64,000 bases of DNA from the IMG/VR virus record IMGVR_UViG_3300005326_000042, positions 1 through 64,000 of that record. One strand, written 5' to 3'. Source of the DNA: a virus (Duplodnaviria > Heunggongvirae > Uroviricota > Caudoviricetes). Shown piece after piece: positions 9,073 through 59,183 of this stretch (position 1 is the first letter of the stretch; each line of letters begins with the position of its first letter). The translations under genes were made by a program, and so were the position numbers. The notes beneath the pieces are model-generated. The model had not been told where the DNA came from, searched no databases, and saw only the letters and a program-made list of their open reading frames with translations.

Positions 9073-9115
9073 TGTTGTACCTCGATTAGTGCTTCATCTC
9101 TCATTCTATTTAACC

Positions 9116-9646
9116 TTAACCAACGGTTTTAATCCACTTATCTAACTCTTCCTTATGCCTCAAATACCCCATCAATTTTGTTTCGTTAGCCTCGCACCAA
9201 TCCTGGTTTTTGCCATAATTCATTCCAATTTCTTCACACAACATTTTATTAACCCAAAGAAACAACTTCAAAAATTCAAAATCTCCTGCGCGAAGAGATT
9301 TTAGTTTCCTACAGCAATAATCGTAACTTGTGTAGTTGTGTCGCAGAGAAGATATAACCAAGCTTTTAGTTGGATGTTTGACCCCGCGAACCATAGAAAT
9401 GAGTTGTTTATAATTTGGAGGAATTTCCCAAAATTCTACCTCGATTTCTAGAATTGTTTCCTCTTCTTTAGTACACTCTTTATAAAAGATTTCTTTTTCT
9501 TCCTGTTTCTTTCGATTTCTCTGAATTACTTCTAGTTTGCGATCCTGTTTTTGTTGGACTTTGAATTCTTTCCACTTTCTCTTAGCTTCTTTTTCTCTAA
9601 TCTTGTATGCTTGCCTTTTGGCTTTCTTAGCTGCTTTTGAAGTCAC
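9116..9646 (-). CDS. hypothetical protein with highly basic N-terminus
   Basis: Lys/Arg-rich first 60 aa; possible nucleic-acid binder. Confidence 0.4.
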   Translation of the reverse strand: MTSKAAKKAKRQAYKIREKEAKRKWKEFKVQQKQDRKLEVIQRNRKKQEEKEIFYKECTKEEETILEIEVEFWEIPPNYKQLISMVRGVKHPTKSLVISSLRHNYTSYDYCCRKLKSLRAGDFEFLKLFLWVNKMLCEEIGMNYGKNQDWCEANETKLMGYLRHKEELDKWIKTVG

Positions 9647-40005: not shown

Positions 40006-40875
40006 TTAAGCCTTTCTAAGTTTGTGACTTTTTCTTATAGCTTCTCCCTTTCTACTACAATTACAGTTTGCACATTCAAGTCTATAATCCTCTTTTAAAG
40101 ATTCGGGCCAGCCTTGTTGACGAAAATTGGAGAGCAATGCCGTACTATTGCGCTCTCCATTTCTTCTCCGCTCCGCGCCATCGTTATGTATGTGAGAGAT
40201 AGTTAAAAATTTTAATTCCGTTATTCCACATGGACAACCACCAAAGAATTCAAAAGCTTCTTTCCAGAGTTTAGCTGAGTATCTTTGATTTTTAGTTTGC
40301 AATTCCCAAGGTAAATCCAAATATTCCCTTCTTCTCGCCAAATTATGATTCCAACATAAAACTCTCAGATTAGATAATTTATCTTTCGGATAAGTATCAT
40401 TAGTAACGGCTAGACGTAAGGAATGTCCACTATATCCCTTCTTCTTGTCGATATATCCTGTCTCATCGATATGGTCTACGGTTAAATAATCGGGATTAGT
40501 CACATTACAAAGAGAACATTTACAGCCACCCAAGATTTCAAGTACTTGAATTTTATTTTCTTCGCGATATTTTTTATGGTGTTCTTTTATTTTATCTTTA
40601 TTTTCATTATAATACCTTTTCCCGTATTCTTTATTATGTTCTTTATTTTCCTTATAATACTTTTTTCCACATTCTTTCCTGTGCTCTTTATTTTCTTCAC
40701 GATATTTTATATCGTATTCTTTTTTGTGTTCTTTGTAGTTTGGATTATCCCAATTAGATATCGTTTGTTGACACACTCCACATTCCTTAGCTATTTCTCC
40801 CTGACTTTTCCCAAAAACATTAATTTGGAGATCCAACCATTCTTTATTTTGATAAATAGGTTTTTCTTCACTCAC
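40006..40875 (-). CDS. HTH + double HNH-motif endonuclease, paralog 1
   Basis: N-terminal KEWLDLQ...IAKECGVCQQTISNW HTH; K/E/Y repeats; GGCKCSLC...VDHID...LRVLCWNHN and GGCPCG...ISHIHND...ECANCN; GTG start after AGGAGGT. Confidence 0.6.
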   Translation of the reverse strand: MSEEKPIYQNKEWLDLQINVFGKSQGEIAKECGVCQQTISNWDNPNYKEHKKEYDIKYREENKEHRKECGKKYYKENKEHNKEYGKRYYNENKDKIKEHHKKYREENKIQVLEILGGCKCSLCNVTNPDYLTVDHIDETGYIDKKKGYSGHSLRLAVTNDTYPKDKLSNLRVLCWNHNLARRREYLDLPWELQTKNQRYSAKLWKEAFEFFGGCPCGITELKFLTISHIHNDGAERRRNGERNSTALLSNFRQQGWPESLKEDYRLECANCNCSRKGEAIRKSHKLRKA

Positions 40876-41029
40876 TTTTTGACCTCCTCTTAATATCTTC
40901 CTTGATTAATCCCCTTAGAAGAGCGGAAGCGGAAGTCTCATCGTCGTCAGCCATGTTTTCTAACTCATCTTTTAAATGTTTAGAGAGTTTGAAAATAAAA
41001 GTAGCTGTTTCTTTGTCAAGTTGTTTCAT
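40868..41029 (-). CDS. ribbon-helix-helix protein coupled to HNH paralog 1
   Basis: 53 aa, TFIFKLSKHLKDELENMADDDETSASALLRGLI; stop overlaps HNH start; below track cutoff. Confidence 0.45.
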   Translation of the reverse strand: MKQLDKETATFIFKLSKHLKDELENMADDDETSASALLRGLIKEDIKRRSKSE

Positions 41030-41303
41030 ATTAAACACCATATATAAAATTTGTAGTTATAATATAATAATTATTAATATTTAAATCTTTCGGTTGAATT
41101 TAATTTTATTCAATTAATTTTTTTAAAAACAAACTTAAATTTGCCTTTAGACAGTTAAATCAGAATTTAAAAGCGAGGTTCATAACGCGATCCAACCGCG
41201 CTAATTCCCTCGCCATGCGCATATGATCGGCATCCCATTTAAGGCTTGCTATCCGCGCCTTGGTGAGGCAACGTTCCAACTATAATATCTGTGAGGTCTC
41301 ACC

Positions 41304-42125
41304 ATGACAAATAAAGCTTTACTTGCGGGAATCAATGCCTATATGCAATCTCCGCTTAGAGGTTGCATCAACGATGTACTTGATGTAGAGAACTATTTAC
41401 TAGGAAAGAATTTCCAGTGTACCAAACTTCTCGACTCTTCCGCCACCAAACCCAATATTCTAAATGGACTTAACACACTTATAAACGGAAGCCACGCAGG
41501 AGATGTATTGGTGTGGTATTTTAGCGGCCACGGATCTTACATTTTAGATAATAATGGAGATGAAACAGACGATCAATATGATGAGTGCTTGATTTCTTAT
41601 GACTACTTCACAAACGGAAATTTCATTCGTGATGATGATTTAGCTGAAATATTTACAAGAATTCCAGAAGGAGTTTTAGTTGAGTGTATCCATGACTCCT
41701 GCTTTTCAGGAGATTCCACAAAACTATTTAATGATCTAAATTCAAATACCCGTTTTGTAGATATCGATACTAATTCTATAGATTTAAAATCTTCTGCTTC
41801 AAAATATATTCCTATCCAGCTTTCTAGACCTAAAAAGAAAGTTGTGAAAATTGGAAGGATAGGACATAAAGTCAGTAATATTACCATGAACCACATCTTA
41901 TCAAGCGCCTGTGGTGAAACTCAGACTTCAAGCGAGGTTCGGGTAAACGGTCAATATCGCGGAATTTTTACATACCTGCTTACAAGAAGACTCAGACTTT
42001 CTCCAACTATGAGCCGATCTGGAGTAATAAGTAATGTTCGAGCAAACCTTGCTGCACTAGGGTTGTCACAAATACCTATGTTAGAGTGTATCGATAGTGA
42101 AAAATTAGAGCCTTATTTCTCATAA
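41304..42125 (+). CDS. caspase-like cysteine peptidase (peptidase C14 / metacaspase family)
   Basis: Catalytic His in VLVWYFSGHGS and catalytic Cys in IHDSCFSGDS in caspase order (His before Cys); N-terminal KALLAGINAY; SD GAGGT. Confidence 0.65.
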   Translation: MTNKALLAGINAYMQSPLRGCINDVLDVENYLLGKNFQCTKLLDSSATKPNILNGLNTLINGSHAGDVLVWYFSGHGSYILDNNGDETDDQYDECLISYDYFTNGNFIRDDDLAEIFTRIPEGVLVECIHDSCFSGDSTKLFNDLNSNTRFVDIDTNSIDLKSSASKYIPIQLSRPKKKVVKIGRIGHKVSNITMNHILSSACGETQTSSEVRVNGQYRGIFTYLLTRRLRLSPTMSRSGVISNVRANLAALGLSQIPMLECIDSEKLEPYFS

Positions 42126-42142
42126 TTTTTTGAGGTTTTCCT

Positions 42143-42514
42143 ATGCAAGACTCAGAGGCTCGGATTTTGACCGCTATTGGCGAGTTGAAGACTGATATTC
42201 AGAATATAAAGGATGATTTGGACGAACTAAAAACGTTCAAGGACGAACTACAACGGACCCAACAATCATTTATAGATTATAAAGAAACTAGAAAAGATCT
42301 TCCGAAACAAATTTCTGATCTGAAGGAGAAAGTTACGGTTTGCCAAACAAATTGTATTAATGAGTCCAAGGTGTTTGAACAAGTTTGTAAAGAGGTTAAA
42401 TTCCTAATGGGATGGTATAAAACAGGAACAGGAGTCGTTATATCCGTGAATGTTCTTGTTGCTGTTTTAGTTCTCGTTTCTAAATATATTGATATTTCTA
42501 AATTATTTTCGTGA
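42143..42514 (+). CDS. coiled-coil protein with C-terminal TM anchor
   Basis: Heptad N-terminus, C-terminal GVVISVNVLVAVLVLV. Confidence 0.45.
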   Translation: MQDSEARILTAIGELKTDIQNIKDDLDELKTFKDELQRTQQSFIDYKETRKDLPKQISDLKEKVTVCQTNCINESKVFEQVCKEVKFLMGWYKTGTGVVISVNVLVAVLVLVSKYIDISKLFS

Positions 42515-42523
42515 GGGATTGAG

Positions 42524-42940
42524 ATGGATATTTCATTTTTAGCTGCTGTTATACTGTTCTTACTGGCTTCCGCTCTGGTTGCTTGGTATCTGGCTTCATA
42601 TAAGAGATTGTCTGTAATTCTAAAATTCCTCCTCATCACTCCTTTTATTCTCGGTTTTGCAATAGCTCAAGATGAGATCGAAGAAGGGCTTTTTGTAGAC
42701 GATCTTACGGGAATAGAAGTCACAGAAGACGACAAACCTCTCATCCTCAATCCCGATATTTTAACAAAATCCGCAGAAGCAATTAATAACGCGGTAGAAT
42801 CTGTAATTAAACTTCCAGAAATCATCCCAGACGGTTTATCTCAGGAACTTCAAATTCAGGAAAAGAATAGAGTCTTTTTGTTAGATAATACCTTGAATTT
42901 CACACCAAGAAATAACACTACGGAGTTGATTGTGGTTTGA
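42524..42940 (+). CDS. membrane protein with two N-terminal TM helices
   Basis: MDISFLAAVILFLLASALVAWYL and LLITPFILGFAIA. Confidence 0.45.
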   Translation: MDISFLAAVILFLLASALVAWYLASYKRLSVILKFLLITPFILGFAIAQDEIEEGLFVDDLTGIEVTEDDKPLILNPDILTKSAEAINNAVESVIKLPEIIPDGLSQELQIQEKNRVFLLDNTLNFTPRNNTTELIVV

Positions 42941-43107
42941 ATTCTGACGAAGAGCCGTTGGTTTGTAGAAAATGTTTTTGCAGGTTTTCTTGTGGGGAGA
43001 GGTGTGAGAAAGCAAAAGAAGTTAATTTTATCTAATTAATTTTTTTAAATTACTTTGTTAATATAGACAACTTCTAAACTATACTCTTTACAAGGAGAAT
43101 TGTTTGT

Positions 43108-43749
43108 ATGGCTAAATTATATAATGCTCCGTTTCAAGGTCCGAGGTACACGCTTCACGGACCTTTGGCGTCTCGTCCTACTACTGCCAAGGAAGAGACA
43201 TATTTTCACGATACTACGAATAATGAATGGTACTACTATACTTCGTCTGCTTGGAATAAAATAGGAAAATCTGACGTTCTCCTTAAAGACGGAACAATTG
43301 GATTAACCGCAGATTGGGACGCTGGATCTATAGATATCCAGGCAGAAACTTTTACTTCAGATGTTCCAATCGGAACCGCGCCTCTCACCGTTACCTCTAC
43401 CACAAAAGTTACCAATTTAAATTCTGATCAGGTCGATGGTTCAGACCTGTCAGATCTCCTTGCAAAAGAAGAGACGCCGTATTTAGGAAGAGGAACAAAT
43501 TATCAAATAACTGCGGGAGATTATATTATCGCGGTTACTTGTGTTGGAACAGATATTGATGTCACTCTTCCAAACCCGACCCTCAAGAAGACGGTGATTA
43601 TCAAAAAGCTAGATAGTACGTCTCATGCTGTTAACATTGAAGCCTACGACGGAGAAAACATTGAGGACAGCGCTACCGATCTTATTCTGACTCACCAGTA
43701 CGACTCTGTGACTCTTTCCAGTAACGGAATTAATTGGTTTATTGTTTAG
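43108..43749 (+). CDS. tail fibre / baseplate-associated protein
   Basis: Thr/Ser/Gly-rich beta-type composition, precedes fibre module; SD AAGGAG. Confidence 0.45.
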   Translation: MAKLYNAPFQGPRYTLHGPLASRPTTAKEETYFHDTTNNEWYYYTSSAWNKIGKSDVLLKDGTIGLTADWDAGSIDIQAETFTSDVPIGTAPLTVTSTTKVTNLNSDQVDGSDLSDLLAKEETPYLGRGTNYQITAGDYIIAVTCVGTDIDVTLPNPTLKKTVIIKKLDSTSHAVNIEAYDGENIEDSATDLILTHQYDSVTLSSNGINWFIV

Positions 43750-43759
43750 GTGATTTAAT

Positions 43760-44224
43760 ATGACTTATTTTGGTTTATTGAAAGGAAAGACCGTCCTCGG
43801 AGTCGTAAAAGAATGGCTCATGGACGATGACGGTCATGGGCAGGTGGATGTGGTGTCCACAGCAGCGCCAGCCACCCTACCTTTGCCCACAGGCGCGGCT
43901 ACGGAATCGACTTTGGCGGCGATGAACGGGAAGCTCGGTGCTCTCAGCAGAACTCCCCGCTCGGGTCAGCAAACGGTAGCCGCAGCGGGAACAGAAGTCG
44001 CTCTAGGTGCATCCCAAGTCTATAGGGAAGTTACAGTGATTGCCAACAGCGACAACACCGGAAACATCTATATTGGTAACGACGGGACTGATCATGTATC
44101 AAGTACCACGGGCGGCAAGCTTCCAGCGGGCGGATTTGCCACTTTCCACAATGTAGATATCTCTAAGATATTTGTAGATGTTGCGGTCTCCGGCGAAGGT
44201 GTCTCCTGGTTTGGTGAGATTTGA
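43760..44224 (+). CDS. fibre-associated structural protein, paralog A
   Basis: GQQTVAAAGTEVALG...VTVIANSDNTGNIYIGNDGTD...GEGVSWFGEI; paralogous to 44473..44865. Confidence 0.5.
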   Translation: MTYFGLLKGKTVLGVVKEWLMDDDGHGQVDVVSTAAPATLPLPTGAATESTLAAMNGKLGALSRTPRSGQQTVAAAGTEVALGASQVYREVTVIANSDNTGNIYIGNDGTDHVSSTTGGKLPAGGFATFHNVDISKIFVDVAVSGEGVSWFGEI

Positions 44225-44472
44225 TGTTCGGCCAGCATCACTGCTCAAAATGTGGCCTAAAATATAACAATGCGTCAGTAGACGGGCGAGATTACACTTA
44301 CACCTGCAAGAACTGCTGCCAAGTTGAAACCTTCCACATGGATGGTACTAGCACCACATTCGACTGCCCGATATGCGCGAAGACTGCATTGAATGCAAAT
44401 TTCGCGCCCAATAACGTGAACAGGAAGATGGATTTCTCGGATAAATATAACTCAATGTATCGGGTGATTTGA
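44221..44472 (+). CDS. zinc-finger small protein between fibre paralogs
   Basis: CSKCG...CKNCC...CPICAKT. Confidence 0.4.
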   Translation: MMFGQHHCSKCGLKYNNASVDGRDYTYTCKNCCQVETFHMDGTSTTFDCPICAKTALNANFAPNNVNRKMDFSDKYNSMYRVI

Positions 44473-44865
44473 ATGGCAGATAGCAATTTGAAGATTCTGA
44501 ATGCGGATGAAGATCCGAAATGGCAGAAGGTGAAGGGGGCGCAAACGGAGGGAGATCCCGGATCGCCGTACGTGTGCCTGGATGGGAGCAATACCCCGAA
44601 GAGTGGACAGAAAGCAGTGGCATCAGCAGGTACTGCGGAAGCCCTGGGAACGACCCAAGTATTCAAGCGGGTTACAGTGGTTGCCAATGCCGATAATACA
44701 GGAGATGTGTATGTTGGCAATGACGGTGCTGACGATGTCAGCAGCATCACGGGAATAATCTTACCCCCGGGCGGCTGGTTCGACTGGTTCTTTGTGGATA
44801 TCGCTGATCTCTATGTAGATGCTGAAGTATCTACTGAAGGCGTGTCTTATGGGGGAGAAATATGA
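44473..44865 (+). CDS. fibre-associated structural protein, paralog B
   Basis: GQKAVASAGTAEALG...VTVVANADNTGDVYVGNDGAD...TEGVSYGGEI. Confidence 0.5.
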   Translation: MADSNLKILNADEDPKWQKVKGAQTEGDPGSPYVCLDGSNTPKSGQKAVASAGTAEALGTTQVFKRVTVVANADNTGDVYVGNDGADDVSSITGIILPPGGWFDWFFVDIADLYVDAEVSTEGVSYGGEI

Positions 44866-47039
44866 GCGCAGGACAATTTATTCAGGGAGTGCTACGCGGT
44901 GCATATCGCATATATAATGTGCACGATTTTGGCGCGGTGGGGGATGGCGTCCACGATGACACAGCAGCATTCCAAGCATGCATAACAGCCGCCGCTGGAA
45001 AGGGGCCTGCCATCGTTCCCAAGCCACTTGTTCGATATCTAGTATCGTCTCAGGCCCCGATGGCGTATGGATCATGGAATTATTGCATCGCTGTTCCCAG
45101 CCACACGCAGATAATTGGTCTCGATAGGCCCGAAATTCAGCTCAATGCCGCAGATACAGATGTTTGCCGAACTATATTTACAAATTCGGATTGGGTAAAC
45201 GGGAATACTGATATCGAGATCGTGGGACTGTCTATAGATGGAAATTACAGGAACAGACAGGCGGGAACAGCTAATAATCTGGTACTTATTCACATGGGAG
45301 TATCAGACGCTGGCGCTACCGTTGGATGCACTGACATTCGAATAGAGTCAAATAAGTTGTACGATGGAATTCTCGGTATCGGACTATATAACTACATCAA
45401 AGGTGCTGCCAAAAACAGCAACTGCAAGGTCAATTCGAATGTCATCGACTCGATGCAAAATTTCTGCATAGAATTCGACTCCACCGATAACTCTGAGATG
45501 AGTGGCAACCAATCATCGAACAGTTTGAATTACGATGTCGGCGGGGCGTATAATCTAATATTTTGGTCAAACAACAACACCGTTGATGCAAACCAATTCA
45601 AGTCTTCGAATATCAACAACACGGGCATCTGGATCAAGCACGGCAGTTCGGGAAACATCATCACTAACAACAACATCATTGCTCCGATGGGGTGCATCTT
45701 CTTCGAGACCGAGCCGGTTGAAACCGCTTCGATCACTGAAAACAACACTGTATCGGAAAATTACTTCGAGGAAACCGGCGCTTCGTCCAAGTTCTTGATC
45801 TACAATGCAGCTGGATCGACATTCAGAAACAATACAATCCGTGACAACAAATTCGTAGGTTGGCCTCTGTGGATCAGGGCAACGCAAACCGCTGCGAGAG
45901 ATTGCACAATCGATGGTCTTTATATTCGTAACAATGAATTTATTGTGCCCGACAATGTTAAGAACATGTGCATAGGATCAGCCGCCACAGAGGGCGGCGC
46001 CGGCACGTCCTGGGACAATATATTCGTCGAGGGGAACACATTCAGGAGGGGGTATATTGCTCTAGTTGGAAAAGTCAATCGCCTCTTCATCCGACGCAAC
46101 AAATTCATAGCAGTGGCCGGAACTCAGATCAATATCGATACTACAACATCGATTACAGAAGCTTACATTGATGATAATACAGCGATTGGCGGAAATAACT
46201 TCGTCTACACAGATGGAACGCTCCTGGGGCTGAAAACTCTCAGGCGCAATACGATTATTGCAAGCGGTGGGACGGCGATAACAGTCGGATCTGCAAATGC
46301 AATAGACATTTCTGACAATGATATAGATGTACCGACGACAGGATACGCATTCAATATATTAGCCGGATCACATACATTTAAGCGGAATAAAATTCACGAT
46401 GGGCAATACGGAATTACCGCCCCAGTGGGCACCGTTCAAACAATAAAGGATTGTGAGTTTTCGGGGTTGACTGGAGCCACACCTCGCCTAAAAGGCGCGG
46501 CAACGTATATTACCGATGTTTCGACAGAGCATTTCCAAGGTGTATTAGCGGCATCGGCTACTGCGATTAGATCAAATGAAGATCTGAGCGCGGCAACACC
46601 CCTCACCTTTACACTGGATGCTCAACCCGATGTTCCGAGGCGGCTTGTATGGGCCTTTGATGCGCATGCTCAGATAACAGCATTCTCCATTACTTTTACT
46701 GGAGTGAATGCGAAGGACGTTGCCGTTACACAAACGATCACAGAAGCTTCTGGCTGGTCAGGTGTCACGAATGAAGCATTTGCCACTATCACATCTATCA
46801 TCATGACCGCCAGAACAGGAACTGGTGCAGGTGATACGATTGATATCGGTGTCAATGATGTGATTGGCTTGGCAACCTCGCTTGATGTCGCGGCGGATGT
46901 GTTTAAGGTGAAAAAGAACAGTGCGAATTATCCCGCAGCAAGTTATACGGTGGAAGATGTTTATGACACGATCGACTTGAGCACGGGCGGGGCGATAACA
47001 GGCGGGGATGATTTCACGATTTGGTACAAGGCACTATAG
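44862..47039 (+). CDS. tailspike/receptor-binding protein with pectate-lyase-like right-handed beta-helix
   Basis: YNVHDFGAVGDGVHDDTAAFQACI N-terminal motif of the pectate-lyase superfamily; many N..I/N.F beta-helix rungs; 725 aa. Confidence 0.6.
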   Translation: MSAGQFIQGVLRGAYRIYNVHDFGAVGDGVHDDTAAFQACITAAAGKGPAIVPKPLVRYLVSSQAPMAYGSWNYCIAVPSHTQIIGLDRPEIQLNAADTDVCRTIFTNSDWVNGNTDIEIVGLSIDGNYRNRQAGTANNLVLIHMGVSDAGATVGCTDIRIESNKLYDGILGIGLYNYIKGAAKNSNCKVNSNVIDSMQNFCIEFDSTDNSEMSGNQSSNSLNYDVGGAYNLIFWSNNNTVDANQFKSSNINNTGIWIKHGSSGNIITNNNIIAPMGCIFFETEPVETASITENNTVSENYFEETGASSKFLIYNAAGSTFRNNTIRDNKFVGWPLWIRATQTAARDCTIDGLYIRNNEFIVPDNVKNMCIGSAATEGGAGTSWDNIFVEGNTFRRGYIALVGKVNRLFIRRNKFIAVAGTQINIDTTTSITEAYIDDNTAIGGNNFVYTDGTLLGLKTLRRNTIIASGGTAITVGSANAIDISDNDIDVPTTGYAFNILAGSHTFKRNKIHDGQYGITAPVGTVQTIKDCEFSGLTGATPRLKGAATYITDVSTEHFQGVLAASATAIRSNEDLSAATPLTFTLDAQPDVPRRLVWAFDAHAQITAFSITFTGVNAKDVAVTQTITEASGWSGVTNEAFATITSIIMTARTGTGAGDTIDIGVNDVIGLATSLDVAADVFKVKKNSANYPAASYTVEDVYDTIDLSTGGAITGGDDFTIWYKAL

Positions 47040-47080
47040 GGCAAAAGGAGAACCCCAGTTCTCCTAAGTCCCTCATTTCA

Positions 47081-47485
47081 TCATTTTTGGCTGAGAACTT
47101 CCGTATTAGTCCTATGTGATATCATTAGGCTCTTCAGTGCAGCGTTCTGCGACTCTATGATATCCAAGGCCCGCTTTGACCAATCTGCTACTGATTCTCC
47201 TGGCTTCCCCGCACATTCTTTGAGACGGTCGTAATCCGCTGCATATACCCAAATCATTTTCTTTTCATCCGACTTCTTTTTCGCGGATAAAAACATGCAC
47301 TTATCGAAGGATACTTGCCCTGGATACAATTTAAAATCCCTTAAATTGATCTCCTCTATATCCGGATAGAAGGTGCAATTGATAAAACGCACTTCGGCGC
47401 TCTCGTTTATAGCATCCGCGATTATTGTTTCGCACTCCGATAGGTTCAGAACCTCATCAAATCGTCTTATTATTTTTGGCTCCAT
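47081..47485 (-). CDS. hypothetical protein
   Basis: Track ORF. Confidence 0.4.
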   Translation of the reverse strand: MEPKIIRRFDEVLNLSECETIIADAINESAEVRFINCTFYPDIEEINLRDFKLYPGQVSFDKCMFLSAKKKSDEKKMIWVYAADYDRLKECAGKPGESVADWSKRALDIIESQNAALKSLMISHRTNTEVLSQK

Positions 47486-47665
47486 GTAGAAAACTTATAA
47501 TCTTTATAATATTTATAACCATCGTACAACATAAGTCCAAAAGTACATGACTATTCAGCAAAGTCGATCATTCCAATCATTATAGGAATACATAGATCCT
47601 AGAGCGCGCCCCTATGCGGCAGATAGCGAAAATAGGAGTATAAGAAAAGGAGAATAAAAAATAGA

Positions 47666-47935
47666 CTAAAGTCCTAGATGCCGAAGAGTCGAGGATTTCC
47701 TTCGCTTCGGTCTCTCCTTCTGAATCTGATACGCAGGCCGCTCGACCTCTTTCGGCACAGCGTCCACGATGTCGGACTTGCCACAGTTCGGGCACGGTCT
47801 GCCCTCTGGTTCAACCTCGTGGATCTTGTCGGGCTTTAGGGTGGGCATTCTAATGCCTCTGTGGAGGTGGGTCCACTGGAGGAAGTGATGCTCGCAGTCG
47901 AGGCAGCGTTTCTCCTGGACGCCGACGATCTTCAT
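47666..47935 (-). CDS. zinc-ribbon protein (GC-rich operon)
   Basis: Start at internal ATG (MKIVGV) overlapping upstream stop (ATGA); CLDCEHH...CPNCG. Confidence 0.4.
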   Translation of the reverse strand: MKIVGVQEKRCLDCEHHFLQWTHLHRGIRMPTLKPDKIHEVEPEGRPCPNCGKSDIVDAVPKEVERPAYQIQKERPKRRKSSTLRHLGL

Positions 47936-48075
47936 GGCTTCCTCTTGCGAAGATCTATCTCCGCTTGAAGGGCCTTGCGACATACGGCGGCCACGTTGAT
48001 CTCCTCCAGATCCTCTAGGGATTTTTGCATCTCTTCGGAGATCTGGAAGGTTTTTGGGATGGGGTATTTCGCCAT
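47932..48075 (-). CDS. ribbon-helix-helix-like small protein (GC-rich operon)
   Basis: Internal ATG (MAKYPIPKTFQISEEMQKSLEDLEE...) coupled to neighbours. Confidence 0.35.
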   Translation of the reverse strand: MAKYPIPKTFQISEEMQKSLEDLEEINVAAVCRKALQAEIDLRKRKP

Positions 48076-48617
48076 CACTGCCTGCCCCCAAATTTCTCTA
48101 GGATGGGCGTCAGACAAATGTCTAGCGCCATTCCTCGGAAATGGCATTCGTGCATTGTTACGAGCGACGCGACCGCACGCTCCTCCTCAATTTCTGGAGT
48201 GGTGACCTCCCCGAGGTCGATCAATGCCTGGACAACCCAGTCAGGCATGGTCTCTATCGGGGTCGCTGGCTCCTGTGGCCACCATGGGCACCCCTGATTT
48301 GGCGGGGTAACTCGGAATCGCTGTATCTTCCCATCTTGGAAAGATACGAACTGGTAATATTGATCGTTTATCCCATACCAGGTGGCAATTACGCAACCTG
48401 GATGAGCTTTCAGCCAGTTATCCCAATCGTCCCATCCCACTCGAAGGGATGTCTCCCCGGCTATTCTCTCATGATCCGTACTCGCTGTTATCCAGCGAGA
48501 GTCAGTCCCATGATGGGACTGAAACGTTTTGCTCTCACCCGGTTGGGGCTCTTTCCGCCCCTTCATACTATCTCTCATATTTGGCATAGCATCTACTAGT
48601 ATCTCATAGTATATCAA
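48075..48617 (-). CDS. hypothetical protein (GC-rich operon)
   Basis: Start uncertain (possibly internal MPNMRD). Confidence 0.35.
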   Translation of the reverse strand: MIYYEILVDAMPNMRDSMKGRKEPQPGESKTFQSHHGTDSRWITASTDHERIAGETSLRVGWDDWDNWLKAHPGCVIATWYGINDQYYQFVSFQDGKIQRFRVTPPNQGCPWWPQEPATPIETMPDWVVQALIDLGEVTTPEIEEERAVASLVTMHECHFRGMALDICLTPILEKFGGRQ

Positions 48618-49006
48618 TGTATCGCCTTAATCAGTGTGTACTTTTGCCACCTACCATTCAGGTACATCAAGCAGAACAAGGACTATAGGAATAGAAAACA
48701 ACGCCTACCGATATCGGTTATAAAACAGCAAAATCGACCCTCTGATATCGATGTGCTTCTAGGATAGAATCTTGGCTGGAAGTACATGATTATCGAGGTA
48801 GCTCTGCCCTCCAAAAGAGCTTTTCACAGATAACCAATAGCAGTAAAACCACGCACTGCGAACAATGGACGCCCCAATGACTGTTCATAAGAATCCAATC
48901 GGAGAAACTAACAATCGAAATTATCCTCATTGAGAAATAAAATCTACTAAAAGAGAAGAAACCATCCATCGAAATCTTTTTATAGTAATAGATATATTAA
49001 TTCATT

Positions 49007-49597
49007 ATGAAAAAGAAACTCAAAGAATCCTCCACAGATATTCCTCTCGATTCTATATCTATTGATCCAAACCTGTATTCTGATTCCAGCAGTAATACCA
49101 GCACAGACTACGAGGGTTTAACCACAAGCTCAAATGTGACTTTAGATCCAGAGGAAGGCCAATGGAACTATACAAACGAGTTGCCACCTCTAGAAGGAGC
49201 AAAGTATGAACCTTTTGATTTAACTCCTTTCTCTCCAGACGAAGAAAGAGAATTTATCCCCAGCAAGAAATCTGCTCGTTTCTATGGACAGCTCGAATTC
49301 CCTAAAAACGTAACCATAATTCGCGCTCCAGAAAAGGAATATCAATTCTCCTCTCTCCTCGCTGTAAATCAGATCTTGGATTCTCTAGAATTCAACACCA
49401 ACGATTCCCGCGCGGCAAGTGAGGCGGTTAGAAACGCACTGATTGCGAAGTTTCCGAATCTGCCTGTGGGTTTAGCAAAAGACGATTCTGGTTTTGTGGT
49501 AAACGTAATCTGGTTTGCGCCTAATGTGAGGAAATATTTTGATTACGGAACGAAGAGTTGGATGGTGTTTCATCCGAGCAATGTCGTGATGATTTGA
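49007..49597 (+). CDS. hypothetical Ser/Thr-rich protein
   Basis: Track ORF. Confidence 0.4.
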   Translation: MKKKLKESSTDIPLDSISIDPNLYSDSSSNTSTDYEGLTTSSNVTLDPEEGQWNYTNELPPLEGAKYEPFDLTPFSPDEEREFIPSKKSARFYGQLEFPKNVTIIRAPEKEYQFSSLLAVNQILDSLEFNTNDSRAASEAVRNALIAKFPNLPVGLAKDDSGFVVNVIWFAPNVRKYFDYGTKSWMVFHPSNVVMI

Positions 49598-49705
49598 ATT
49601 CTGGATTTAAATATTTGGAGTATTTGGAAAGGATCAAAAGATGTAGTGTAGCATACGAAAGTTGGAAGAAAATTGTAGATAATTTTGGTAAAAAGGTGAT
49701 AAAAG

Positions 49706-49909
49706 ATGAGTGAAGATGGATGTTGTTCTGATGAAAAGTGTTGTTCCTCAGAAGATGAATGTAAAATAGTTGTATGTGAAGCTTGTGAAAATAAGGGATG
49801 GCAACTTAATCTGGTAACAGGAATGAACGAGATATGTCAGGTTTGTTGCGGCTCAGGAATTCGGTTTAAGTGTAATTGCGGAGACATTCCGAGTTATGAT
49901 ATGTTTTGA
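49706..49909 (+). CDS. Cys-rich small protein
   Basis: CC..EKCC...C..CEAC...CQVCCGSG..FKCNCG. Confidence 0.4.
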   Translation: MSEDGCCSDEKCCSSEDECKIVVCEACENKGWQLNLVTGMNEICQVCCGSGIRFKCNCGDIPSYDMF

Positions 49910-49922
49910 AGGGTGATGAGAA

Positions 49923-50300
49923 GTGAGAAAGCTGAAATGTGCAAATTGTTCTAAAATTGTAGAAACCGAAAAAGAATTGAAGAAATATGTGTGCCCCTCT
50001 TGTGGCGCAATAAATACCCCTGAAGATCCTAATGCTGGTTTTGGAGATCAAGCGTGTGGTTGTCTCTTACCGGATGGGTTTGAGTTCAGGCTACCAGCGG
50101 GCAAGATAGGAAACAAATTTACTGGATATAAGTACATTAGTCCTGATAATGGCGACGAGTTAACTAAGACTGAATGGATGCTCTCATTTGGACTTGACCC
50201 AGATTTGGCTCTGGAATATATGAGGTCAAATGCTGCCGCAGATGAGAGAGATGATGATGTGGATCTGTCCACTCTCGGCAAGAAGAAGGTGAGAAAGTGA
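49923..50300 (+). CDS. zinc-ribbon protein
   Basis: CANCS...CPSCG. Confidence 0.4.
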   Translation: MRKLKCANCSKIVETEKELKKYVCPSCGAINTPEDPNAGFGDQACGCLLPDGFEFRLPAGKIGNKFTGYKYISPDNGDELTKTEWMLSFGLDPDLALEYMRSNAAADERDDDVDLSTLGKKKVRK

Positions 50301-50713
50301 GACTTCTTTTAACTATCCTCCTTTTGGTTTCTCTAATTTCTGTTTCTCTTGCTGCTCCAATCGCACTGAAGCCAGATGAGATTGTTAAGAACCATAAAGG
50401 ATTAGCACCCGAAAAAGTGGATCTTTCTTGGACGGATGAAGGGGCTCTTGGAGAGATAGATGGTTCTATGAATCATTTATCTTCCTGGAAACCGATAGTT
50501 ATTCCTAGTTTTGGTCATTATAATACTGAATCTCTTGGTGTTACTCAGGAAAAGAGCGTCGGAATACCAACTGGACTCATAAATTTCAGTAAAACAATTG
50601 AGCCGATCCCAGTGAGCATAAAAGAGACAAATTATCTCCTTGAGCTTAATTTGTCTGAGTTAAACAACACAAACGTAACTGAAATTAGTTCTAAAGATTG
50701 GGTTTATCTATGA
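50297..50713 (+). CDS. secreted protein
   Basis: Signal peptide LLLTILLLVSLISVSLAAP. Confidence 0.45.
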   Translation: MRLLLTILLLVSLISVSLAAPIALKPDEIVKNHKGLAPEKVDLSWTDEGALGEIDGSMNHLSSWKPIVIPSFGHYNTESLGVTQEKSVGIPTGLINFSKTIEPIPVSIKETNYLLELNLSELNNTNVTEISSKDWVYL

Positions 50714-50725
50714 GATAAAGTCTAA

Positions 50726-51538
50726 TTATACTACATATTTTTTACTAAGGTTGCAGTTAGCACATTCTAATCTGTAATCTTCTTTCAGAGTTTCGGGCCA
50801 ACCTTGTTGGTAGAATCTTTCTAATAATCTGATTCCAGTCTTTTCTCCGTTTTTTCTTTGCTCCGCCCCATCGTTGTGAATGTGGGAGATTGTTAAAAAT
50901 TTTAGTTCTGATATTCCACAAGGGCAAGGACCGAAGAAATCAAATGCCATCTTCCAAAATTTAGTTTGTCGTCTTTGTTGTCTTGTCTGGAGGGTGGGTG
51001 GAAAATCTAAATATTCTTTTGTCCTTCCAAGATTATGATTATAACACAATACCCTTAAATTAGATAATTTTTCTTGTGGATAAATCTTATTTAAAATTGC
51101 AGAATATAAAGATATACTATATAATCCGTCTTTCCTATCTAGGTGTCCTGTTTTATCGATATGATCTATTGACAGAAAGTCCACGTTGGTCACATCACAA
51201 AGACTACATTTACAGCCTCCAAGAACATTTAATACCTGAATCTTTATGTTTTTTCGATATTCTTTTACTTTATATTTATTTTTTTCTTTCTGTTCTTTTA
51301 TTTTTTCTCTATTTTCTTTATAATAACTTTCTTGATATTCTTTTATTTTATGCTTGTTTTCTTCCCGATATTCTTTTTGTCTTTTTCTATTGTGTTCATC
51401 GCTCCAATAAGATATTGTAGACTTACCCACTCCACACTCTTTTGCAACTTGTCTTTGGTTCTTTTTCAAAACATTTAATTGATAATCCAACCATTCTTTA
51501 TCTCGATAAAGAGGTTCTTCTTTCTTAAAACCACTCAT
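50726..51538 (-). CDS. HTH + double HNH-motif endonuclease, paralog 2
   Basis: Same architecture as 40006..40875 (KEWLDYQ...VAKECGV...TISYW; LRVLCYNHN; ECANCN). Confidence 0.6.
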   Translation of the reverse strand: MSGFKKEEPLYRDKEWLDYQLNVLKKNQRQVAKECGVGKSTISYWSDEHNRKRQKEYREENKHKIKEYQESYYKENREKIKEQKEKNKYKVKEYRKNIKIQVLNVLGGCKCSLCDVTNVDFLSIDHIDKTGHLDRKDGLYSISLYSAILNKIYPQEKLSNLRVLCYNHNLGRTKEYLDFPPTLQTRQQRRQTKFWKMAFDFFGPCPCGISELKFLTISHIHNDGAEQRKNGEKTGIRLLERFYQQGWPETLKEDYRLECANCNLSKKYVV

Positions 51539-51696
51539 ATAACCAACTCTGGAAAAGGAAACGTTTCTCTGTATTTTTCTTTAATTATTTGCCTTAAAAA
51601 CGCGGCTTCAGAGAGTTCATTAAAATCTGAAAGTTTAGAAAGCATTTTTCGGGTTTCTGGTTTCATCCGAAACCCAACCATAACAGTATCTGACAT
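51535..51696 (-). CDS. ribbon-helix-helix protein coupled to HNH paralog 2
   Basis: VMVGFRMKPETRKMLSKLSDFNELSEAAFLRQII; ATGA overlap with HNH start. Confidence 0.45.
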   Translation of the reverse strand: MSDTVMVGFRMKPETRKMLSKLSDFNELSEAAFLRQIIKEKYRETFPFPELVI

Positions 51697-51974
51697 AGTT
51701 AACACCAAATAAAATTATTTTTATAATAATATAAACTATTAGTATTTAAATGTTTCGCTAGAATTAACCGAAAGTTTTAAATATTAAAAGTGATGATAGA
51801 TAATATCACGGAGATTTAAAAATGACAGATCTAGAATGGTTCTGTTGGATTGCTTATCAAGAAAATATGTGGAGCAAAGATCTAGAAATCTCTGAATACA
51901 TCCATGTTTTAATTGAAGAAACAAATTGGTCTAATTTACAGAATGGACCTATTTGCGGAATTTAAAAAAAGAAA

Positions 51975-55786: not shown

Positions 55787-55963
55787 TCAACTCTTATCAA
55801 ACATTTCCTCCATTGGAATTTCTACAGGGGCCCAATCTTTCTGTCCTTCAAGTTTATAATATCCTACAAAAGACAACTCCTGTAATTCATTTTCTTTAAA
55901 ATGTGCTTTAATTCCTATATCTTCACTGAAGATGATGGTAACGTATCCGTACATAGATATCAT
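55787..55963 (-). CDS. hypothetical protein
   Basis: Track ORF trimmed to internal ATG so it does not translate the tRNA. Confidence 0.35.
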   Translation of the reverse strand: MISMYGYVTIIFSEDIGIKAHFKENELQELSFVGYYKLEGQKDWAPVEIPMEEMFDKS

Positions 55964-56076
55964 GGGCAAGGTAGGATTTGAACCCACATCGCGAGTTTTG
56001 GAACACACGACATCGGTCGTGTTAGAGCAAAACTAAAGTTTTGCGACTCGCTACTTATCCAATTAGTGACATGCCC
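55963..56076 (-). tRNA. putative intron-containing tRNA (anticodon CCA/Trp or CAA/Leu depending on intron placement)
   Basis: 5' GGGCATG pairs with 3' CTTGCCC + discriminator A; T-arm GTGGG-TTCAAAT-CCTAC; anticodon stem CGAGT/ACTCG; about 42-nt insert with two perfect 7-bp hairpins; 114 nt; no encoded CCA. Confidence 0.5.
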
Positions 56077-58030: not shown

Positions 58031-58879
58031 TTAAAGAACACCTGTCTGTTTGCTTCGCTCCTTTTTAATTCTTCTACCACAATTGCAGTTTGCGCACTCT
58101 AAACAATAGTCTTCTTTTAAGGATTTGGGCCAACCTATTTTGTTGAAATCCATAAGTAAACGCACCCCAGTATGTTCCCCCTTCTTTCTTTTCTTGTTGC
58201 CATCATCATTTTTGTGCGATACTTGAAGAAATTTTAACTCCGTGATTTCGCAAGGACAACCGCCAAATAAGCTAAAAGCTTGGTTCCAAAGTCTAGTATA
58301 ATATTTTTGAATAGTAGTTTGTAATTCGGGTGGGATATCTAAATATTCTTTTTGTCTGCCATCATTATGATTCCAGCAGAGAACTCTGAGATTTGATAGT
58401 TTTTCTTTTGGATAAGTTCCTCGCGCAACAGAAATGTATAATTTTCTTCCCCCAAATCCAGATTTCTCATCTAAATAACCAGCTGAATCTATATGATCTA
58501 TTGTGAGTAGATCCGTATCGGTTATATCACATAACTGACATTTACAGCCGCCTAAAACTTCAAAAGCAGCCTTTTTAATATTTTGAGTATATTCTCTTCT
58601 TCTTTTACTTATCGCTTCTGAATTATTTCTTGCGTATTTTCTGGCGTGCCCTTTTAGGCGTTCTTTATTATTTTTTCTATAAATCTTAAAATAATTGTTA
58701 AAATGTTCTTTATTATTCTGCCGATATTGCTTCTGTGAATCATCATACCAATAAGATATGGTTGTATAGCAAACCCCACACTCTCTTCCAATTTGTGCAT
58801 AGCTTTTTCCTAAAACCTCAATTTGTTCCTTCAACCATTCTTTATCTCTATACCGCAGATCTTTTTCAGACCCGCTCAT
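58031..58879 (-). CDS. HTH + double HNH-motif endonuclease, paralog 3
   Basis: KEWLKEQ...IGRECGVCYTTISYW; GGCKCQLC...IDHID...LRVLCWNHN; GGCPCE...ECANCN. Confidence 0.6.
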   Translation of the reverse strand: MSGSEKDLRYRDKEWLKEQIEVLGKSYAQIGRECGVCYTTISYWYDDSQKQYRQNNKEHFNNYFKIYRKNNKERLKGHARKYARNNSEAISKRRREYTQNIKKAAFEVLGGCKCQLCDITDTDLLTIDHIDSAGYLDEKSGFGGRKLYISVARGTYPKEKLSNLRVLCWNHNDGRQKEYLDIPPELQTTIQKYYTRLWNQAFSLFGGCPCEITELKFLQVSHKNDDGNKKRKKGEHTGVRLLMDFNKIGWPKSLKEDYCLECANCNCGRRIKKERSKQTGVL

Positions 58880-59034
58880 TCTATTCCCCTCTTTTGTTGT
58901 TCTTTCTCAATCAATTTTCTCAGAAAAGCCGCAGTTGTGATTCCATCTGCAATCGACATTTCTTCTAAAGTCTCGCGCAAACTCTTTGAGAGCTTGAAGG
59001 TAAACAAAATAGTCTGAACTCTTTGTTGTTTCAT
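58876..59034 (-). CDS. ribbon-helix-helix protein coupled to HNH paralog 3
   Basis: ILFTFKLSKSLRETLEEMSIADGITTAAFLRKLI; ATGA overlap. Confidence 0.45.
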   Translation of the reverse strand: MKQQRVQTILFTFKLSKSLRETLEEMSIADGITTAAFLRKLIEKEQQKRGIE

Positions 59035-59183
59035 TCTAAACACCATATAGAAAAGATTCTATAATATAATAAATATCTCATACTATATAAACTTTTCTAT
59101 ATTATTTAATTCATGAACCGAAAGGTTTATTAATAAACAAAGATATTCTTAGTTTGTTGTCGATTTTGGTTAAGTGATCATAA

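Follow-up and report, generated by a model that had tools for sequence, protein, structure and literature searches.

A metacaspase-like protease gene and two small membrane-protein genes recur together in viral DNA as a candidate egress cassette

Layout of the three-gene locus

We analysed a stretch of 64,000 nucleotides (nt) from a tailed virus (Caudoviricetes), positions 1 to 64,000 of IMG/VR record IMGVR_UViG_3300005326_000042, which is referred to here as the window. The study focused on a cassette of three genes that encodes a caspase-like protease and two small membrane proteins, partner 1 and partner 2. The open reading frames (ORFs), with product lengths in amino acids (aa), are as follows:

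41304-42125, + strand: metacaspase-like protease ORF, 273 aa
42143-42514, + strand: partner 1 ORF, 123 aa
42524-42940, + strand: partner 2 ORF, 138 aa

An earlier sequence-only reading, made by a model without database searches, had described three co-oriented genes with Shine-Dalgarno sites and an AT-rich region of their own. We found the same layout: a Shine-Dalgarno sequence of the GAGG type lies 5-9 nt 5' of each gene, and a 262-nt AT-rich non-coding stretch lies directly 5' of the cassette. The genes are tightly spaced, with 17 nt between the protease and partner 1 and 9 nt between partner 1 and partner 2. Hydropathy analysis gave no transmembrane (TM) helix for the protease, one for partner 1 and two for partner 2.

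The protease is a minimal metacaspase-like enzyme

ORF 41304-42125 encodes a genuine metacaspase-like Peptidase_C14 protein with a predicted caspase-hemoglobinase fold, as the sequence-only reading had proposed when it called the product a caspase-like C14 peptidase. The Pfam Peptidase_C14 model (PF00656) matched residues 3-262 (E=8.9e-20), and its score of 71.8 bits exceeded the 21.4-bit cut-off. A profile built from the protease and 48 homologues was searched against the PDB and matched the yeast metacaspase Yca1 (E=3.2e-65), as well as Candida, Arabidopsis and Trypanosoma metacaspases and Geobacter GSU0716. The catalytic dyad had been read as His followed by Cys, and we placed these residues at His76, within VWYFSGHGS, and Cys133, within HDSCFSGDS. 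Neither residue varied in the 47 homologues aligned, and Cys133 shares an alignment column with the mutated catalytic Cys of 6w8r (C139A) and 4f6p (C276A). The AlphaFold2 model of the protease (predicted local distance difference test score, pLDDT, 81.2; predicted template modelling score, pTM, 0.80) was confident except at residues 141-192. Its top Foldseek matches were metacaspases 9 and 4 (probability 1.0, template modelling score 0.70-0.73), followed by Yca1, MCA2 and GSU0716, with MALT1 and caspases more distant.

Type I metacaspases have an N-terminal prodomain, type II enzymes have a linker of at least about 150 aa, and in type III enzymes the p10 domain comes before p20. The architecture of the window protease is that of none of these types: its domain begins at residue 3, p20 precedes p10, the linker is about 52 aa long, and there is neither a prodomain nor an accessory domain. 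Judged by this layout, the protease is a minimal prokaryotic-type metacaspase form. No signal peptide or TM helix was found in it.

The disordered linker (residues 141-192, 52 aa) separates the p20-like and p10-like halves and carries 10 Lys or Arg residues, as would be expected for an autoprocessing site. In AtMC4, the Lys/Arg-binding pocket consists of S84/D137/S350/D352, and the acidic L5 loop 96EDDD99 is required for Ca2+-dependent activation (10.1101/2020.03.09.983940). The pocket aligned with S74/D131/S209/E211 of the window protease, and the loop aligned with 86DETDD90. Because the P1 pocket and the acidic loop are kept and the linker is rich in Lys and Arg, we infer that the protease is active and basic-specific, that its activity is probably Ca2+-dependent, and that it probably cleaves after Arg or Lys.

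The two membrane partners match no family in the libraries searched

The sequence-only reading had also described the second product as a coiled-coil protein anchored by a TM helix at its C-terminus and the third as a protein with two N-terminal TM helices, and both descriptions held. In partner 1, a coiled-coil-type N-terminal domain (about 95 aa) is followed by one TM helix at the C-terminus (about residues 98-116). Its conserved features (alignment A5) are F-x-D-Y-K-E-x-R, a C-x3-C pair, FLM-x-WY directly adjoining the TM helix on its N-terminal side, and a very short C-terminal tail beyond the helix. Because a signal sequence is absent, partner 1 should be tail-anchored, with its domain of about 95 residues predicted to lie in the cytoplasm.

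The two TM helices of partner 2 are N-terminal (residues 3-21 and 29-47), with a short basic loop, YKRLS, between them. Its tail is acidic, with a net charge of -13 in the window and -6 to -13 over the family, and N-x-T sequons lie at its end. All family members (alignment A6) start with MD and keep Y-K-(K/R)-L in the loop between the helices. On the positive-inside rule, partner 2 is predicted to adopt an N-out/C-out topology, with both termini external.

Neither partner matched any model in Pfam, PHROGs, NCBIfam or PADLOC, apart from coiled-coil noise for partner 1 in PADLOC. In a word-indexed search of 5.8 billion proteins each partner retrieved only itself, and single-sequence scans of viral contigs gave no relatives of either. 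An i-spanin has an N-terminal TM helix and a periplasmic coiled coil, and an o-spanin is a lipoprotein; in partner 1 the TM helix is C-terminal and there is no signal sequence or lipobox, and the cassette contains no lipoprotein gene.

The cassette recurs in otherwise unrelated viral DNA

When partner 2 was compared exhaustively with 1.8 billion representatives by phmmer, one weak relative came up, P0123 (37% identity, E=1.6e-4). The contig that encodes it (L090, 1.5 kb, JGI 3300047552) carries the three cassette genes in the same order as the window. Its protease gene is 5'-truncated and keeps the His (FFGHGT) and Cys (GCCYAG) motifs (26% identical, BLASTP 2e-15); it is followed by a 126-aa homologue of partner 1 and then by P0123, and a further ORF starts 8 nt 3' of the cassette. 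A pattern derived from an alignment of the two coiled-coil proteins recovered a third cassette on a 56-kb viral contig (L091, IMGVR_UViG_3300028602_000017), whose sample came from a municipal landfill (PMC10076291). The first protein of this cassette has 230 aa and passes the threshold of Pfam C14 (27.4 bits), the coiled-coil/TM protein has 108 aa, and the protein with two TM helices has 112 aa. The sequence-only reading had treated the three genes as one unit, and on both contigs they do co-occur in the same order. Of the two outcomes it had named as refuting, a missing C14 match or fold and a lack of co-occurrence in other DNA, neither was seen.

Across the cassettes, pairwise identities were 25-26% for the proteases, 28-46% for partner 1 (pairwise E-values 5e-27 and 9e-17) and 26-34% for partner 2. 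Inter-gene spacers measured 4-17 nt in all three cassettes and 4-9 nt in L090 and L091. A local tblastn comparison of the window with L091 showed that the cassette was the only thing they have in common. Because the same genes recur in the same order in otherwise unrelated viral DNA, the cassette is, on these sequence comparisons, a conserved and horizontally mobile three-gene viral module. That the three genes travel together between unrelated viruses is the strongest evidence here for a joint function.

No further cassette was recovered by a metagenome scan with alignment A5, by a degenerate DNA pattern for DYKE...FLMxWY, or by a scan with alignment A6. Components of L090 and L091 gave no tblastn or blastn match to deposited phages. 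When three cassette proteins (two proteases and one partner) were compared with 50,697 phage records, only a partner-less huge-phage protease was found, and the cassette was absent from Methanosarcinales virus vir515. The protease family is already known, as are viral metacaspases in giant viruses. The libraries, genome collections and literature searched contained no fixed pairing of such a protease with both membrane-protein families in a tailed prokaryotic virus, in agreement with the earlier remark that the arrangement is not a described system.

The L091 cassette has an extra 64-aa ORF (9094-9288) with two TM helices directly 5' of its caspase-like gene, and thereby comprises three membrane proteins; this ORF has no counterpart in the window. 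A neighbour-joining tree placed the three cassette proteases close together on long branches and was not relied on.

Homologues of the protease lack the partners

Identical copies of the protease were found on two further contigs of the same virus. The next nearest relatives were only 32-38% identical and came from Chlorobiaceae, Spirochaetota, Desulfobacterota, Gallionellaceae and cyanobacteria; archaeal relatives were few, among them Methanothrix and Nitrososphaerales. Just one of the 50,697 deposited phage genomes (GenBank) had a protease match, the uncultured 485-kb huge phage LR745208.1. Matches in the BFVD viral structure library were giant-virus metacaspases, and one IMG/VR match was a giant-virus-like contig (L009) with a protease 37% identical.

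The cassette partners were not found beside the protease homologues in LR745208.1 or L009. Nor did the cassette occur at 80 cellular loci that carry the closest homologues of the protease, where no relative of either partner was found. Neighbouring genes at these 80 loci were variable, the commonest being sugar epimerase and NusG-like genes. On two bacterial contigs a stand-alone C14 homologue was directly followed by a CHAT-domain protein (L004, 8833-9981, 382 aa; L005, 8922-12377, 1151 aa), and some cellular relatives may therefore have caspase-fold proteases in pairs.

Genomic setting, upstream repeat and leader

The cassette had been placed just before a tail-fibre module, and our matches agree with this: it adjoins, on their 5' side, a gene with weak tail-fibre matches (43108-43749) and a beta-helix tailspike gene (44862-47039, 725 aa). 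In L091, it lies after a 507-aa ORF and a metallophosphatase and before Mu-F-like and tail-tube genes. The cassette is placed among structural genes in all three copies. The non-coding features around the window cassette are as follows:

41096-41127, + strand: 32-nt direct repeat, copy 1 (GAATTTAATTTTATTCAATTAATTTTTTTAAA), 177 nt 5' of the protease start; putative promoter or regulatory element
41128-41303, + strand: non-coding leader, with a GC-rich segment at about 41172-41290 and one predicted hairpin covering the Shine-Dalgarno sequence
43018-43049, + strand: 32-nt direct repeat, copy 2, 59 nt 5' of the tail-fibre gene at 43108; 3' boundary of the cassette

The two repeat copies are identical at 29 of 32 positions, are T-rich, and have a TATA-like TTTTTAAA at the end. 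A 26-nt core of the repeat occurs exactly twice in the 64 kb, with 0 occurrences expected. The repeat is probably a promoter common to the cassette and the tail-fibre gene, and probably a late one. In the leader, the GC-rich segment 41172-41290 reaches about 55% GC amid very AT-rich surroundings. The fold of the leader has a predicted energy of -42 kcal/mol with z=-1.9, which is of marginal significance only. The leader contained no plausible ORF, matched no Rfam family and resembled no phage DNA.

The host of the virus is probably an archaeon

A promoter-like motif, CCGAAAnnTTTAWATA (AAANNTTTAWATA), occurs six times in the window against 0.56 expected:

19110, 31613, 41078, 51743, 51771 and 59084: copies of CCGAAAnnTTTAWATA, all in non-coding DNA between predicted genes

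Four of the six copies lie 35-44 nt 5' of a start codon. The archaeal consensus of a transcription factor B recognition element (BRE) followed by a TATA box fits this motif. A match of about 830 residues links the primase of the window to Methanosarcinales virus vir515; the match takes in an N-terminal part that the listed bacterial phage hits left uncovered, and the C-terminal half of the primase also matched Methanoculleus viruses. Two small window proteins matched vir515 as well, and for an L091 protein the sole match among the 50,697 records was again vir515. One window ORF carries the Pfam domain PTH2, the archaeal/eukaryotic-type peptidyl-tRNA hydrolase. Because of the BRE/TATA-like motifs, the links to vir515 and other methanogen viruses, and PTH2, we consider an archaeal host likely, at a level well short of certainty; if archaeal, the host is probably a methanogen. 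Against this stands the C-terminal half of the primase, which also matched Bacillus, Lactobacillus and Listeria phages at 31-37% identity, the Bacillus matches being higher in identity than those to methanogen viruses.

A tRNA-like gene at 55963-56076 (- strand) scored 30.9 bits with Rfam and was missed by ARAGORN. It has a possible UUCCAAA (Trp) loop and a 42-nt insert with two hairpins in the anticodon loop, and is weak evidence on the host. A bulge-helix-bulge motif could not be demonstrated in the insert, and its reading as an archaeal-type intron was given little weight.

Comparison with known systems

The window protease shares with metacaspases and orthocaspases (MEROPS C14B; MC4/MC9, Yca1, MCA2, GSU0716) the fold, the His-Cys dyad in SGHG and DSC(F/H)SG, the acidic P1 pocket, the acidic loop after His and a disordered K/R-rich linker between p20 and p10. 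It differs from them in its minimal length of 273 aa, in being virus-encoded, in its identity of at most about 38% to any cellular protein, and in its tie to two membrane proteins, which was seen for 0 of 80 cellular homologues. The metacaspases of giant viruses (Fadolivirus, Clandestinovirus, Yasminevirus, Medusavirus) and a virome 'metacaspase-1' are likewise virus-encoded C14 proteins and gave the best viral structure matches. Those giant viruses infect eukaryotes and their enzymes have no such partners, whereas the window belongs to a tailed prokaryotic virus, a group in which these genes are very rare.

Holin-endolysin(-spanin) cassettes resemble the window cassette in that an enzyme without a signal sequence is tightly spaced with small membrane proteins beside tail or late genes. 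The window enzyme, however, is a protease and not a peptidoglycan hydrolase, and neither partner has a match among holin or spanin families; the membrane anchor of the coiled-coil protein is C-terminal instead of N-terminal, and the tail of the two-TM protein is acidic and probably external. In bacterial gasdermin operons with caspase-like or CHAT proteases, and in LypABC of Caulobacter gene transfer agents, a protease is likewise coupled genetically to membrane disruption. The window cassette has no gasdermin, NLR, CARD or ATPase, and its partner families (108-138 aa) are unrelated to those systems in sequence. PeiW and PeiP of methanogen viruses are also cysteine peptidases with no known export route, and open a non-peptidoglycan wall (PMC10791045). 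They differ in protease family and substrate and are confined to pseudomurein hosts, and no Pei-like protein was found in the window.

A possible role in egress and the rival explanations

We tentatively favour a reading in which the cassette is a late-expressed envelope-disruption (egress) module, to which we give a probability of about 0.4. In its favour are the intact active site of the protease, the conservation of the module and its position among late genes. No peptidoglycan-hydrolase family was found among the approximately 70 ORFs of the window, and according to reviews tailed archaeal viruses have no known holin and no known enzyme that degrades the S-layer (surface layer) (PMC10791045; PMC12596118). 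LypABC offers a precedent for peptidase-dependent, holin-independent lysis that releases phage-like particles (PMC13236601). Late co-expression is suggested by the 32-nt motif common to the cassette and the tail-fibre gene. In the proposed mechanism, the cassette would be expressed late along with the tail-fibre genes, and egress would result from its action on the cell envelope. Both partners would damage the cytoplasmic membrane. The protease would be held inactive in the cytoplasm by its uncleaved linker and low Ca2+, in the manner of metacaspases. Once the membrane is damaged, the activated protease could reach the cell wall, which in a probably archaeal host would be made of protein (S-layer or sheath). 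As an alternative step, the protease might itself trigger the membrane breach through cleavage of partner 1 within the conserved basic motif of that protein. The lysis function is put forward as a hypothesis, in which we infer late timing, an archaeal host, Ca2+ gating and the substrate.

Several observations weigh against this reading. Neither partner matched a holin, spanin or lysis family, and the acidic, probably external tail of partner 2 differs from that of typical holins, in which the tail is basic and cytoplasmic. Together with the tail anchor of the coiled-coil protein, this leaves the earlier label 'holin-like' for the partners not established. The roles suggested in the sequence-only reading, in cell death, lysis timing or anti-defence, likewise stand as hypotheses. 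The protease has no export signal, and its access to the wall hinges on a hypothetical membrane lesion. The window is only part of the genome, and a conventional lysin could be encoded elsewhere. The 32-nt repeat could alternatively be a duplication scar from insertion of the cassette, and the archaeal host is itself a probable assignment. Instances of the cassette number three only, and the basic-P1 pocket is only partly kept in the L090 and L091 proteases: L090 has GCC where DSC would be expected, and L091 lacks a GCxND motif. Their substrate may differ, or the protease may be replaceable.

The main rival, which we consider somewhat unlikely, is a virus-borne conflict module serving superinfection exclusion, abortive infection or counter-defence. 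Here the protease would be a switch and the membrane proteins effectors or sensors, a logic analogous to that of protease-activated pore formers with unrelated components. Caspase-fold proteases are abundant in prokaryotic defence; residues 1-78 of the protease matched the PADLOC 'caspase' model (E=8e-15), a weak NCBIfam match was to 'caspase, EACC1-associated type', and CHAT proteins stand beside some cellular homologues. The mobility of the cassette between unrelated viruses, its tail-fibre-adjacent site, which is a classic location of morons and exclusion genes, and the homing-endonuclease-like paralogues that bracket the block holding it would also suit such a module. Yet the cassette encodes no sensor domain (NTPase, TPR or the like), neither partner matched a PADLOC model, and the upstream motif common with the tail-fibre gene suggests late co-expression. 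The cassette was also missing at the 80 cellular loci with the closest proteases, although defence systems are mostly cellular. If the host were instead a bacterium, the cassette could be an unconventional phage lysis cassette in which a C14 endopeptidase acts on peptidoglycan stems or wall proteins with holin-type partners. Gene position and architecture fit this as they fit egress, genes led by Shine-Dalgarno sites are compatible with bacteria, the nearest protease homologues are bacterial, and the primase matches to phages of Bacillus, Lactobacillus and Listeria point the same way. We nevertheless regard it as improbable: the promoter-like motifs fit archaeal BRE/TATA elements and not -35/-10 boxes, methanogen viruses are the only deposited viruses with specific links to it, and we know of no C14 enzyme that cuts peptidoglycan.

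It is about equally hard to credit that the protease is a stand-alone auxiliary enzyme manipulating host physiology or cell fate, with the membrane proteins as mere neighbours. Partner-less homologues do exist in bacteria, the 485-kb huge phage and the giant-virus contig, the BFVD matches are giant-virus metacaspases, and viral metacaspases have been reported as auxiliary genes (10.64898/2026.01.21.700432). The gene order and the 4-17 nt spacing, however, are kept despite identities of about 25-36% and in genomes that otherwise share nothing, which would be hard to account for if the genes were not functionally coupled. The same recurrence effectively refutes chance adjacency, or the idea that the small ORFs are not genes, even though both partners were orphans in the word-indexed search: in two more contigs homologues of both partners, with TM layout and motifs kept, follow a C14-like gene, at pairwise E-values down to 5e-27.

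A stronger form of the egress reading would make the cassette the first system of its kind to be identifiable in tailed archaeal viruses with protein-walled hosts, a protease-based analogue of holin-endolysin lysis; in our judgement this is unlikely. The probable archaeal host changes the meaning of 'lysis'. A 2024 review called the lysis players in tailed archaeal viruses 'completely uncharacterized' (PMC10791045), and how these viruses lyse hosts lacking (pseudo)murein is an acknowledged gap, for which the cassette is a testable candidate. Even if the lysis idea is wrong, the cassette would be a new protease-membrane effector pairing that moves between unrelated viruses, with a bearing on how caspase-driven membrane death pathways evolved.

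Other features of the window

The viral context of the window includes a D5-type primase(-helicase), an NrdD-type reductase, a DNA ligase, homing endonucleases and a radical-SAM (S-adenosylmethionine) protein. Also encoded are two RNA-ligase ORFs, a thymidylate synthase, dCTP and dCMP deaminases and a dUTPase. Five 142-aa ORFs, suggested as paralogues by their equal length, turned out not to be paralogous. Three paralogous units were found on the - strand, at the following positions:

40006-41090, - strand: paralogous unit
50726-51755, - strand: paralogous unit
58031-59096, - strand: paralogous unit

Each unit consists of the CCGAAAnnTTTAWATA promoter-like motif, a 56-57 aa ORF and a helix-turn-helix (HTH)/HNH-like protein of 270-289 aa (51-60% identical). 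The cassette and the tail-fibre genes lie in a + strand block (41304-50713) that is bracketed by two of the three units. Two small paralogous proteins (43760-44224 and 44473-44865) are encoded 5' of the tailspike, and their C-terminal halves are alike (...GEGVSWFGEI and ...TEGVSYGGEI). Across the tail module (44000-48000) the GC content climbs from about 37% to 47%, which suggests a mosaic origin.

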